A stretch of DNA of 64,000 nt from Eledone cirrhosa (Eukaryota): positions 6,386,001 through 6,450,000 of the forward strand of contig OZ024746.1 of the NCBI GenBank assembly GCA_964016885.1, written 5' to 3'. The notes under the pieces were generated by a model. The model saw nothing but the letters and a program-made list of their open reading frames with translations, did no database searches and was not told the origin of the DNA. Shown here piece by piece: positions 794 through 47,122 of this stretch. Within the stretch, counting starts at the first letter, position 1, and every line of letters starts with the position of its first letter. A program made the translations under genes and the position numbers.

Positions 794-1050
794 TTATTCA
801 AAATATTAATAAATGAGAAATATTATCACAACCAAAGTATATATTTTATTATACATATTTCAAAGGTACAATGGTGTTTCAGTACGTTTTCATCAGATAA
901 AATATATAAGAGATTGGTTATACGACATACCGCTAAGGTCTTGAATCTTCCATTCCTGTACCTTCCATTCCATTGTACCTTTGAAATATGTATAATAAAA
1001 TATATACTTTGGTTGTGATAATATTTCTCATTTATTAACATTTTGAATAA
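794..1050. mobile_element. Fold-back (inverted repeat) element next to a (TA)n run
   Basis: Arms 794-874 and 970-1050 are near-perfect reverse complements, directly after a long (TA)n. A related copy lies at ~47040-47172. Confidence 0.85.
844..902 (-). ncRNA. Minimal hammerhead ribozyme (TTTTAT/ATAAAA stem I family)
   Basis: Reverse strand reads TTTTAT-CTGATGA-AAA C GTAC[12 nt]GTAC C TTT-GAAA-TATGTA-TA-ATAAAA. Confidence 0.7.
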
Positions 1051-2559
1051 CATTATAGATGATACTCCTAATAAATATCTGTCGAGTCCTTCTAATCTAT
1101 TGTAAAATTGCATTCGTTGAATAATCAACGAACCATATAAACTTTTGGTTATATATATATAACTACATTATACAATGTGCATTGTCTTTTTAAAGACGTT
1201 TAGTGTCATTGGAGAGGGACTTGTCTACTATTCTAAATATGGCAAGTAACTAAATAGAATCTTCTAGCCAGCAAAGTCAAATTGACGATCTCTTGGTTGT
1301 TGATAGACGTGACTTTGATTTAATTACTAATTAAAGATAATTGTCATCTTCCGCTATAAACGCCATTCAGCACTTTAAAATTATTGTTTTGTTTCCAATG
1401 AGGATAGGTTTGGCGACTGATTTATAAATATAGATAAACTTCTGTTGAATCGATACAGCAGCCAAGGTTTAATACGTGGTAGATGTGTCCCGTTTCGTTG
1501 TTAATTGAAAACTTATAATAATTAGAAATATTCAAAGATATTTGAACTCCCCACCTAGCTCGTAGAAAATAGAGAAACGAAATATATTAGAAGATAGTGT
1601 TAGCTATAAACCTCAATTCTCTGAGGTATAACATATTATTACAATACGGTTGTGTGTTGGATTCATAGACGTGAGCGATAAAGTGACGTACTCAATGACT
1701 ATCTCTATTTAGCTTCAGTTCTTCCGTTTTCATTGCGTATCCCGCCAAGATTGTCTTTACTGTTCTTCTCCGCAGGGCTGATAATAATGTAGCAATATTA
1801 CATCGAATTGATTCAATTGACTTACACATTTCCGTCTAGAAACTAATGTCGCAATTATTCTTGAAACAAATGTTTTAAAATCAAATACATATAATCATCA
1901 ACAGAAATTTGAAGTCACGTGGAGCTGTAGATTATCGATTTGTGCTTACAGTAATGAAGGTAGATTGCGTAATCGATAATAAATATTTGGGGTAGATTAC
2001 TGTCATGATAAACAATCAACATTTTGTTTCGCTTCATACGAAATGTTAGAGGGAAGTTAACCTGATTAGATGCAGACTAGTGATAAGTCTCAGCAGTTTC
2101 TTCTATCTTAATAATAGGTTAGAAAGTAATGTGTGTTGAGGAAACAAATATTTTCATATGAACGACTGCATCTATAGAATGTTATTTATGATTGAAATAG
2201 ATAACCGAGTTTTCTCACCGACTCCTTTCGGGTTTAGAAGTTTACCACAGTTTACCAGAAGTATCCTGCCTGATAAAAGCTTCTTCCATGTATAAATGAA
2301 TTTCATGTTGGAATCGTAAAAGTTCAAAATATTATCGTCAAACATATATATGTGTATGTGTATATGTGTGTGTATGTATGTGTGTGTGTGTGCGTCCGTG
2401 TGTGCGTGTGTATGTGTATATGTATGTGTGTGTATGTATGTATTTGTGTGAGGGGAAGGCACATGGCCTAATGTTAAACAGTTGGACTAACAATCATGAT
2501 ATTGTAAATTCGATTCCTAGATCGGATGGTGCGCTGTGTTCTTGAGAAAATCGAAGTCT

Positions 2560-2795
2560 TTAGAGACATTTGTCGTAATCCAGTTGTTTTATGAACTCAG
2601 ACAATGAAAACACTGGTCACTTTCACATCCCGAATGGGTTCCGCCAGGATTGCAGCCTGTTCACATTTCACTTTCTACAAATCGTGGCTTTTATCATGAA
2701 AACGACAACCCAACAAAACAAAGAATATAGCAACTAGTGATCAGAGCACAAAGTACTGGCTGACCTCAACTTTAGTGAGGATATTGAATTCTTGG
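2560..2795 (+). pseudogene. Degenerate RTE-type reverse transcriptase fragment
   Basis: Translates to NGFRQDCSLFTFHFL...LADLNFSEDIEFL, resembling the RTE motifs GVRQGC.LSP.LF and L.DLDFADDI.LL. Confidence 0.5.
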
Positions 2796-2889
2796 TAGAA
2801 TTCAGTAACAATTTGATCAGCTCTAGTTAAACTTTTTTAATGGGAATGTACCACTACTATTAACTCTTCGTACATGTAAATATTTAATA

Positions 2890-3075
2890 ACTGTTTCTGA
2901 TTTAAACACAAGACCAACAATTTTAATGGAGGGGAAAATCGATTTAATCGACTCGAATGCGTTACTGGTATTTTATTTTATCGAACTCGTAAGGATAAAA
3001 GGCAAAGCTAACCTCGGGCGGATTTTGAACTCAGAAGGTAAACAGATGTAATTCTGTGCCGCAAAGCATGTTGTC
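2890..3075 (-). mobile_element. Diverged copy of the dominant tRNA-headed SINE
   Basis: Contains TACTGGTATTTTATTTTATCGA...AAAGGCAAAGCTAACCTCGG..GGATTTTGAACTCAG, matching other copies. Confidence 0.75.
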
Positions 3076-3652
3076 ATGTAATAAGAATAGTGTGCAGTTG
3101 GAATATAATGCGGCTTAATGATATTTTTGACAGCTGTTAATCAATTATGTAATATTTTCTCCCACACAAATATGACATAATTAACAATTTAACTTCCATA
3201 TTGACACACTTAATAGCTTCTTTTGCTCATTAGATATTTTGTGGCTATCTCTCTAGTTGTTGGATTACATAATGTAATCCTTATAATATGACATGATGTA
3301 ACGGTTACCAGTCCACCAAAGGCTATTAATTTTAACATCATCCCAGGGGAATAGTTCACTACTCCATAAAATCTGGGTTCATCCATAGGTCTATTTGTTT
3401 ATATGTACTGTATGTATGTACGTCTGTATGTATATATCCATGCATGTAGTAACACAACAGTTAGTTCACCATGCTGAGAACAATTATTTCACCTAATTGT
3501 AACAATAGACAAACTATCTGGTTCTCTCCGCCCTTCCAATGTTCTACCTCTCTCTCCCTCTATATATATATATATAATTGGTGTTGGATGCTTAAAGCCT
3601 CCGTATGCGGTAGGCCGTTTGAACACTCGATGCTCTCATAGAGCAAAGTATG

Positions 3653-44236: not shown

Positions 44237-45617
44237 TTATGTCACTGTTGTAATTATTTATATATATATATACACATGCAGACTTATAAGTATATATATA
44301 TGTGTATGTGTGTGTGTAGAGCTGAAAGTAAATAGTGAACACCTCCCAAATCCTCTCTCAATTAATTATCTTCCTCTTACCATTCACTATGTTATATATA
44401 TATCTGCTTTAATTCCTTTAAATCTTCATCAACACTCCTTCACTCCCACACTCATTAACCTCCCACCCCACCCACCATCCCGACACACACAAATCTCTTA
44501 TATAGAGAGTCAAATATCACAACACCACCAGAGATCAGTTTCACAATCGCCACCGACGAATGTGAGAAAGTTCTCCAGGAACGTTAACCAGGAATCTTTT
44601 TAAAATCCCTTTTTAAATATATATTTAAAGGTTAAACTAGATATATATATATATTTACTAGATATATATATATTTAAAGGTTAAACTAGATATATATATA
44701 TTTAAAGGTTAATATATATATATATATATATATATATATAGAGAGAGAGAGAGAGAGAGAGAGAGAGAGAGAGAGAGAGAGAGAGAGAGAGAGAGAGAGA
44801 GACAGAGAGAGGGGGGGGAGAGAATATACATTATTCAAAGCTAGAGTATGTGGATTGGTTTGCTGCCAGCATACGACGTATGTATTAATTGGATTTTTAG
44901 GGGTGACATGATTTATTTTTGCTGGAAGAGAGAATGTATTTTGATAAGCACATTCACATACACATACATATATATCTGTGGCTACAAAATAACGTATTAC
45001 ATTTATATCGCACCCTTGTATATATGCACACATATAGACATACACTCCCCACTATATATAAATATATATATATATGTGTGTGTGTGAAGAGAGAGAAGAT
45101 ATATATATATATATATATTTATATACATACACACGTATGATCAAAGTCACATGTGTATATTTGCCTATACGCATGTCGCTCAAGATATAAATAGTCATGT
45201 GTGTGTATATATATATACAAACAAATACGATTGTGCGCATATGCGTACAAGCATATATACACATGTATTTGTATATATACTTATTCGCAGATACACATAT
45301 ACACGCACACAAATATTCATATATGTCACAGACGACCATAGGCGTGTGTATACAAATATATATACATTAACATTATAGAACATATGATGTACATAAAAAT
45401 GTAGACTATAGAAAGTGCTAGGGAAAGTTCTATGCAGAAAACTATGCGAACACATCTGATCCCTAATGTCTAAGTACATGTCCTAGGGAAAATATTGTCT
45501 TAGATTATATTTCGAGTTGTAGGAGACACATTCATGAATGCTAGTAGGTTGATTCTACCATTTTACATTCTCTAGATTCGTATCGAGAATGTTGGTTTTT
45601 ATCCCTTTCGATTTAGA

Positions 45618-45814
45618 CCTCTGCATACAGAAGATCAACTTCGATGTTGAGCTTTAGATTAATATGATTTCTAAGGTTTCAGAAGTTGTTTAGGCCTCTA
45701 CATACAGAAGATCAACTTCGATGTTGAGCTTTAGATTAATATGATTTCTAAGGTTTCAGAAGTTGTTTAGGCCTCTACATACAGAAGATCAACTTCGATG
45801 TTGAGCTTTAGATT
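45618..45814. repeat. 77-bp tandem repeat, ~2.5 copies
   Basis: CCTCT(A/G)CATACAGAAGATCAAC restarts at 45618, 45695 and 45772. Confidence 0.9.
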
Positions 45815-46198
45815 GATGCGATTTCTGGTTTTACATTTAATCCTGTAGTATGTTATCTTATGTGTTTAGACAAGTTAGTATTTTTCTCTTCTACCAACTT
45901 GTCTGAGAGATTAGCAATACTTAGGTAATCAGGACTTATATATGTTCTCTTTTAATCTCATCTATGCCTGATGTTTTCTTCTTCTAGAAGACATCTACGC
46001 ATTGTATATATATATGTGTGTGTGTCTGTCTGTCTGTCTGTCTGCCTGTCTTTCTGTGCGTTCAATTTATTCATTTTATTAAGGTCATCAAATGACCCTG
46101 CGATAAACAGGCGAAACTCCAGAGTAGCAATATTCACTCTCTAGCCTTAATAAACCATATACGGTATATATATATATATATATATATATATATATATA

Positions 46199-46335
46199 GT
46201 CCAGAATTAGCCGTCGAAACGGCTTGAGCTCAGCCGTCGGGTCCTACTCGTTCCTATTATCCACTCTACTACCCTAAGTATTGAGTACTTTGGTGCGTTA
46301 TGGTCCACCTGGTTCCTTACCAAATTTCCTTCGTT
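46199..46335 (+). mobile_element. ~135-bp structured element between (TA)n runs (GCCGTCGAAACGGC family)
   Basis: Relatives at ~3962-4000, 20362-20420, 30133-30192, 46388-46562, 52270-52447, 61560-61720 and 62740-62926. Confidence 0.85.
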
Positions 46336-47059
46336 ATATATATATATATATATATATATATATATATATATATATATATATATATACCAGAATGGAGGCA
46401 GTAAATACCAGTTAGACCATTATTCAGCAGAGTACTCGATACTTGGGGTAGTTGAGTGGGTCATATGAAAACATTCAAGACCCCGGTGGCTGAGCTCCGG
46501 CCGTTTCAACAGCTAACGGATCTAGCTTTTGAAACGGCTGGAGCTCAGCCGTCGGGGTCTTTAATTTATATATATATATATATATATATATATAACCAAA
46601 GATTAAATTTGATATAATATATAAGTATAATTAGCTTAACTATAATCAAATAAAAGAGATATTCAATGGTTTATGGTAATTGATTGGTTGCCTCAATTGA
46701 CCTAATATTTGAAAACAACGGTTTCTTCTATATATCCTAACATATATTTTATGTTCCCTCTCTTTTGTCGTTATTTCTCCTTTCTTCTTCCTTTTATTTA
46801 TTTTTATTCATTTAAATATTTATGTATGTATTTATTTATTTTTTCTTATTTTTCTTTTTTTCTTTCTTTCTTTTTCTTGCCTTCCTCCTCTTTACACCCT
46901 CTCTTATATCTCTAATGCGCTCCATGTCCTTTTCTTCTTTATGTTTATCATATTATTATTTGTGGTATATAAATGTTGAGATTTGATGAAATAAATCACT
47001 GCCAATACTGGAATTGAAATATCAAGACCGTAGAGGTATGTCATATATCAAATCATATA

Positions 47060-47122
47060 TTTTATCTGACGAGGACGTACTGAAACAAACAACACAATAC
47101 CTTCGAAATATATATAATAAAG
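47060..47122 (+). ncRNA. Minimal HHR (same family as 844-902)
   Basis: TTTTAT-CTGACGA-GGA C GTA[..]TAC C TTC-GAAA-TATATA-TA-ATAAAG. Confidence 0.62.

Follow-up and report, generated by a model that had tools for sequence, protein, structure and literature searches.

A conserved unpaired cytosine in stem II of high-copy hammerhead motifs of Hydra-type Penelope-like retrotransposons in Eledone cirrhosa

Introduction

Hammerhead ribozymes (HHRs) carried by Penelope-like elements (PLEs), one group of retrotransposons, were described by Cervera and De la Pena in 2014 (PMC4209133) as motifs with a long helix II and a palindromic helix III that fall into covarying families and may occur as opposite-strand pairs. 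Here, we analyze HHRs in a stretch of 64,000 nucleotides from Eledone cirrhosa (assembly GCA_964016885.1, contig OZ024746.1, positions 6,386,001 to 6,450,000; hereafter the window), for which an original prediction, made from the letters of the DNA, had proposed a subfamily whose stem II consists of 3 bp, a conserved C.C or C.U mismatch at the fourth position, and an outer helix that differs between copies while remaining paired. Like the HHRs in the cited part of the 2014 study, these motifs are of type I, reside in pseudo-long terminal repeats (pLTRs), combine a long helix II with a short palindromic helix III, and belong to many divergent covarying families; they likewise occur mostly as solo copies, with opposite-strand pairs 100-700 bp apart. 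They differ in having no extra base between nucleotides 9 and 10.1, a feature of the Cervera consensus that is seen in another window family (27817), in that G10.1-C11.1 is a minority state, in their 8-nt palindromic stem III, and in a conserved internal C.H mismatch. By eye, the fourth helix II pair is mismatched in 2 of the 56 HHRs listed in that source (Clonorchis 2, U.U; S. purpuratus 1, C.A, with the C on the 5' side), both of them single examples that pass without remark in the part cited.

The Hydra-clade PLEs of Craig et al. (2021; PMC8557442), whose set includes an octopus member, share with the elements studied here several protein motifs, (TA)n targets, an HHR close to the 3' end, a U.U mismatch at 10.1/11.1 in some families, and a near-palindromic stem III, as far as the cited sections describe them. 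However, the arrangement of 3 bp, mismatch, and further helix is found by eye in none of the 25 Hydra-clade families in their File S2, where stem II is mostly 4-8 continuous bp, and the copy number of ~10^5 also sets the present elements apart. The Anolis Poseidon PAc hammerhead (Frangieh et al. 2024; PMC11167929) is another PLE pLTR hammerhead and, according to the cited passages, cleaves only with the element's protein, providing a precedent for protein-assisted cleavage; it belongs to a different clade, and its open reading frame (ORF) starts within stem II. Non-LTR retrozymes (PMC7229834; bioRxiv 10.64898/2026.07.22.740005) also deploy type-I HHRs; in amphibians their cleavage depends on dimers, the axolotl has 10^5 copies, and one axolotl family starts helix II with U.U, but the cited parts describe retrozymes as short tandem repeats with a 4-bp helix II and loop-loop contacts, unlike the dispersed PLE ends considered here. 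We found no description of a conserved unpaired C in hammerhead stem II in the portions of the PLE and hammerhead literature covered, outside which an earlier mention is possible. The motif is genuine: a structural variant, present at very high copy number, of a ribozyme type already known, and set apart by its conserved unpaired cytosine.

An unpaired cytosine at position 4 of stem II

All cited window sites share the type-I HHR skeleton, comprising CUGANGA, stem II, GAAA, a palindromic stem III, a UA cleavage site, and stem I; those at 844, 25511, 41555, and 43246 are on the minus strand. In the nucleotide numbering in general use, position 4 of stem II is formed by 10.4 and 11.4. A pattern combining the core, a C at stem II position 4, and GAAA-T-N4-A-T-A gave 10 matches in the window against 0 in 100 dinucleotide shuffles. 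These represent seven insertions, because three pairs are inverted duplicates with complementary arms (41555/41696, 96%; 43246/43427, 98%; 24516/24767, 99%). The predicted succession of 3 bp, C.C or C.U, and a variable paired helix is present as described at 896 (-), 25571 (-), 41609 (-)/41702 (+), 43306 (-)/43433 (+), and 43657 (+), and the stem III sequences are those originally listed. The copy at 47060 is likewise a type-I HHR with C.C, but its outer helix is broken after 3 bp and its folding is no better than that of shuffles (z -0.5 for this family E copy, at 47066). More generally, single window copies fold moderately (z -3.4 to -0.5, with 3/7 at or below -1.9). The Rfam hammerhead models at the gathering threshold return no match in the window.

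Across the 3.0-Gb genome, a single skeleton pattern in which position 4 alone was varied yields ~117,600 matches, with counts that may overlap slightly through internal pseudo-cores. C.C accounts for 81,894 matches (control 28), C.U for 24,924 (control 23), C.A for 3,734 (control 71), and C-G for 504 (control 35); the 6,590 matches with a base other than C at 10.4 (control 461) include 701 with G-C (control 22). Thus, C faces C, U, or A in ~94% of the skeleton matches, i.e., ~110,000 copies. Individual rows were read for the first 100 matches of each search. Among those listed for C.A, 59 fall by eye into one family with a 4-bp outer helix, 7 into a derivative of family A2, and 4 into a third family, and the endonucleases (ENs) linked to the first two show 77-81% identity to family E and 73-89% to A2; at least three C.A lineages have therefore been amplified. 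Conversely, no amplified paired family appears among the first 100 of 504 C-G and 100 of 701 G-C matches. The paired forms listed are scattered over many families like point mutations, together with an unrelated 16-bp minisatellite (L267 and L268; G000:C2, 36.05-36.10 Mb), whose CTGAAGA mimics the hammerhead core pattern without a stem I. Nor do the genome counts reveal, among skeleton matches, an amplified family without C at 10.4, and an amplified U.C subfamily was rejected, U being found at 10.4 in 7/100 matches listed, sporadically and in one subfamily.

Since amplified C.A families exist, the conserved feature is an unpaired C10.4 rather than a pyrimidine pair. The conserved mismatch of the original prediction thus stands as an unpaired position that is kept genome-wide and on the tree, while its pyrimidine character does not: the 11.4 partner drifts among C, U, and A, and is G in no amplified family. 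In 148 HHRs from the window and 150 loci that were unselected for position 4, this position is paired in 1/148, against 82-98% at positions 1-3 and 5-9; family A is over-represented in this set because the loci were partly selected by stem I or stem III words. None of 42 HHR matches with other stem III types, recovered in a general scan of this genome, combines 3 bp, C.H, and a further helix. Contigs of four sequencing runs (three organisms) covering the family A HHR list variants at positions 1 and 5 and none at 10.4/11.4 at a 5% share; as contigs of the same family, they are not counted as independent support. The search of sequencing runs listed no RNA dataset as carrying the sequence. A scan of metagenomes gave 101 matches (80 loci returned, 58 distinct), which were read as chance because none joined a paired stem II to a fully palindromic stem III.

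Evidence for selection on structure and on C10.4

In 21 natural family representatives, all six stem II pairs flanking position 4 show two-sided changes, with 96% of cells paired (at position 3, the pairs are G-C in 8, A-U in 7, and U-A in 6). Their covariation score of 0.967 compares with 0.380 in shuffles (0/500), which ignore the relatedness of copies, and slid registers score at most 0.21. By two pair-counting measures, the six flanking pairs are not significant (79/500 and 53/500), while the whole structure gives 1/500 and 14/500. Over the three helices, with stem I open, 14/19 counted pairs have two-sided changes; 98.8% of stem III cells are paired, with five two-sided changes at one pair and the outer two pairs fixed by the search pattern. 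RNAalifold independently recovers the 3-bp inner stem, a 1x1 loop, and an outer helix, and register 0 beats every slid register, so that an extra nucleotide between 9 and 10.1 is not supported in these HHRs. The claim that compensatory change reveals selection on RNA structure is upheld by these results for stem II.

C10.4 is the sole invariant column of the 21 representatives outside the search pattern. On a flank tree of 24 copies, the number of Fitch changes is 0 at C10.4, 4 at its partner, and 4-8 at each of twelve neighboring sites. As far as sequence comparison can tell, C10.4 is very probably under selection. Retaining it unpaired has a stability cost, because the predicted mean pairing probability of the inner 3 bp (22 copies) falls from 0.92 if position 4 is paired to 0.53 with the mismatch. 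The inner stem is also weak at its base, where 10.1/11.1 is G-C in just 8/148 HHR matches and 6/24 representatives.

The host element and its families

A 15-mer spanning stem I and the core has 37,294 copies in the genome, against 56 for the control. At locus L057, two HHRs 3,709 nt apart lie within a 354-nt direct repeat flanking an 808-codon open frame; L033 has the same layout, and L034 shows the order HHR, ORF, HHR. The protein of L057 (P0001) carries the reverse transcriptase (RT) motifs FDIASYY and YRDD, and its DKT motif, CxCX5C linker, and CxxC and CxH around the E and N of the EN agree with the Hydra-clade description in the cited part of Craig et al. It reads RWI at the position of the RWK motif, a possible departure from the same description, and its unit length goes beyond the general Hydra-clade size of <3 kb. 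Atlas neighbors of the L057 ORF at 0.95-0.98 include GIY-YIG and RVT_1 clusters. The main end of the element lies ~45 nt past the cleavage site, adjoining (TA)n, which is found in L057 and at 732-794, 25229-25478, 43016-43119, 43526-43581, and 47172-47210 in the window. By homology at the sequence level, the sites are almost certainly HHR motifs at the pLTR ends of Hydra-type PLEs. The window copies are dispersed, inverted, or ORF-flanking, and no array of tandem 150-450 bp HHR repeats without an ORF, the mark of retrozymes, covers any of them. A coding constraint on the family A HHR was rejected: it lies ~210 nt upstream of the first ATG and is hence noncoding, unlike the Anolis motif.

The families are deeply diverged: their ENs share 45-50% identity when A is compared with C (12 and 5 linked copies, respectively), and 29-35% when F is compared with A or C. 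The element at 24763 had been taken as unrelated to the rest. It does have C.C at position 4, but the EN upstream of its family G HHR in L101 (a single-locus link) shares 69-75% identity with the ENs of families B and C, making it a relative rather than a case of independent origin. Its inner stem II has 2 bp because the first stem II position is U.U, a tolerated natural HHR variant according to a passage in PMC3088659. Two further families have peculiarities of their own: four dispersed copies of family K (L262:944 [-], L260:3538 [+], L261:3563 [+], and L259:964 [-]) combine C.A at position 4 with A.A at 10.1/11.1, an unusual stem II base for a hammerhead, and family B (L043, L040, and relatives) has a fixed one-base bulge three pairs beyond the mismatch.

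What the unpaired cytosine might do

We give an even chance to the proposal that unpaired C10.4 in the pLTR HHRs of Hydra-type PLEs is recognized by the identity of its base, the most likely reader being the RT-endonuclease that the element itself encodes. If published PLE and amphibian HHRs are a guide, a tandem transcript would bring two of these motifs together through their palindromic stem III, and the dimer would be cut after the UA site; judging from published PLE hammerheads, a protein would have to assist. Stem III, as an 8-nt palindrome, is unable to close a hairpin and can pair only between two motifs. By opening the helix, the mismatch would make C10.4 accessible, and the protein, once bound, would keep the weak 3-bp inner stem II in its active conformation. 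The pattern fits such readout of an exposed C, in that the base on one side of the mismatch is fixed and that on the other may vary as long as it does not pair. That readout by a protein is the reason for the conservation, as the sequence pattern hints, we hold more tentatively.

The original prediction had also considered a tertiary contact. C10.4 could contact the backbone or minor groove of stem I, or act across the dimer, in place of the canonical loop-bulge contact and without any protein. In the gamma fold, stem II would approach stem I at roughly the level of position 4, and the invariance of C10.4 is base-specific. Contacts between stems II and I also drive fast cleavage in natural HHRs, as stated in the cited part of PMC3088659. 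However, stem I offers no conserved partner: none of its positions 1-8 is invariant in 24 copies, its length varies from 4 to 12 bp, and a conserved extended stem I was rejected, being significant in just 7/24 copies with no loop at a constant distance. This lack of a conserved partner or loop disfavors the canonical contact and favors protein readout; a contact that does not depend on sequence may still be made, but we regard an RNA contact as unlikely. In some members of families B, C, D, H, and E, and not in A, F, and G, stem I extends as a longer interrupted duplex (window flanks 838-908, 41694-41758, 43649-43711, and 47060-47122).

Alternatively, the mismatch could be a brake or hinge that weakens inner stem II and keeps the ribozyme slow until dimer formation or chaperoning, with the identity of the base being incidental. 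The drop in inner-stem pairing, the weak 10.1/11.1 of many families (A-U, G.U, U.U, and A.A), and the slow in vitro cleavage of PLE HHRs are in line with this, but any mismatch should then serve, whereas U.C, U.U, and A.C are unseen in amplified families among the matches listed; we consider it improbable. A historical accident, in which the G of an ancestral C10.4-G11.4 pair was lost a single time and chance has kept the site unchanged since, draws on the C present here, paired with G, in 15/25 of the Hydra-clade HHRs in the cited source (by eye) and on a site-wise P that is modest after correction. Yet, at an EN identity of 30-50% between families, a neutral unpaired site should be saturated, the partner base and the paired neighbors have changed 4-8 times, and the paired state would be favored if stability alone mattered, which leaves accident a quite improbable explanation. 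Finally, the C might be constrained as DNA, in a promoter or an endonuclease target, given that pLTRs hold promoters (cited part of PMC6765202). This is very unlikely: neighboring bases have changed 4-8 times in a compensatory way, so that no DNA motif surrounds C10.4.

Several observations weigh against recognition of C10.4 by the element's protein, or against the conservation on which the proposal is built. The zero changes at C10.4 correspond to a Poisson P of 0.006, or ~0.08 over 14 sites, on a noisy flank tree; several representatives came from a search requiring C.C; and the absence of G at 11.4 is weak by itself because the partner changed only ~4 times. For families B, D, E, F, and G, one or two loci apiece provide the EN link, and for I, J, and K there is none. 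Searches against Pfam (four ORFs) and of PDB sequences (P0001) returned nothing significant. Minimum-energy folding of two molecules predicts the stem III dimer for 4/22 copies, the low recovery being due to most stem III palindromes being AU-rich. Moreover, other HHR classes of this genome and the 25 published Hydra families, as given in the cited source, manage without the mismatch. For the anole PLE, insertion in vitro was still obtained with templates shortened at the 5' end to +20, a truncation that, as we read it, takes away the 5' part of stem II, and it did not require HHR cleavage (PMC11167929, cited passages).

Features of the window

The coordinates of the HHRs and associated pLTR remnants are collected in Table 1. 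An assembly artefact is an unlikely source of the inverted pairs, as their arms are 96-99% alike and such pairs, which are typical of PLEs, recur along C1. Solo copies arranged as inverted pairs, as in the window, would fold back on themselves and are probably inert.

Table 1. Hammerhead motifs and pLTR remnants in the window
Feature	Coordinates	Strand	Details
Type-I HHR, family H	838..908	-	Stem I 12 bp; C10.4 at 886 facing C at 865; cleavage-site A 850; stem III ATATGTAT; fold z -2.2
Decayed inverted duplicate of 24767 HHR; outer stem II disrupted	24465..24520	-	Arm comparison, pattern match
Type-I HHR, family G	24763..24820	+	U.U at 10.1/11.1; C10.4 at 24777 facing C at 24801; stem I 4 bp; stem III ATGATCAT; EN link via L101
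Family A pLTR remnant	25464..25707	-	87-93% identity to L057 direct repeat; beside (TA)n 25229-25478
Type-I HHR, family A	25509..25579	-	C10.4 at 25561 facing U at 25532; outer helix 12 bp; stem III ATGCGCAT; fold z -3.4
Type-I HHR, family C, left arm of inverted pair	41553..41617	-	C10.4 at 41599
Type-I HHR, family C, right arm	41694..41758	+	C10.4 at 41712 facing C at 41735
Inverted pair of family A pLTR ends	43105..43540	.	95% and 92% identity to L057 direct repeat (87-95% with the remnant at 25464..25707); between (TA)n arrays
Type-I HHR, family A, left arm	43244..43314	-	C10.4 at 43296
Type-I HHR, family A, right arm	43425..43495	+	C10.4 at 43443 facing U at 43472
Type-I HHR, family D	43649..43711	+	C10.4 at 43667 facing C at 43688; stem III ATATATAT
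Type-I HHR, family E, partly decayed	47060..47122	+	C10.4 at 47076 facing C at 47101; outer helix 3 bp, then broken

The window also carries several unrelated HHR lineages. HHR-like motifs of other families, with a short stem II, a palindromic stem III of 6 nt, or an additional base ahead of stem II, are seen at 62438 (+), 27817 (+), 25108 (+), 50525 (-), 448 (-), and 44192 (+)/44146 (-). A 5'-truncated PLE ORF at 7189-9084 (+) belongs to another Hydra-type family, with 39% identity to P0001; the 150 genome matches scored show 93-100% identity, and several have open frames of 830 codons, which indicates that this family is young. At the 3' end of this element (~10605-10655, +) is an HHR-like motif with the core CCGAAGA (C for U4), a long, fully paired stem II, and a weak stem I, for which a strict pattern gave just three copies, all with the C. 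A further PLE endonuclease remnant at 18968-19685 (-) is 35-46% identical to the window ORF. Apart from these, a long (GTT)n-like array at 56006-58641, which is strongly strand-skewed and contains 600-770-codon open frames that are Thr-rich on the minus strand, is possibly a mucin-like exon or a simple repeat.

Implications

The Hydra-type PLE radiation reported here, with ~10^5 copies, is missed by Rfam, and descriptors demanding a continuous helix II would likely miss these HHRs too. PLE hammerheads are slow on their own and seem to need dimers or protein, without known tertiary contacts. Against this background, one invariant base outside the core, with natural C, U, and A partners, offers a precise mutation for probing protein-assisted or tertiary activation. 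A more far-reaching possibility, which we consider doubtful, is that these motifs constitute a hammerhead class in which the loop-loop contact has been replaced by one exposed cytosine, read by the element's own telomerase-like RT protein, which would thereby switch self-cleavage on. If this is true, the ~110,000 natural variants would map the tolerance of a protein-read cytosine switch.

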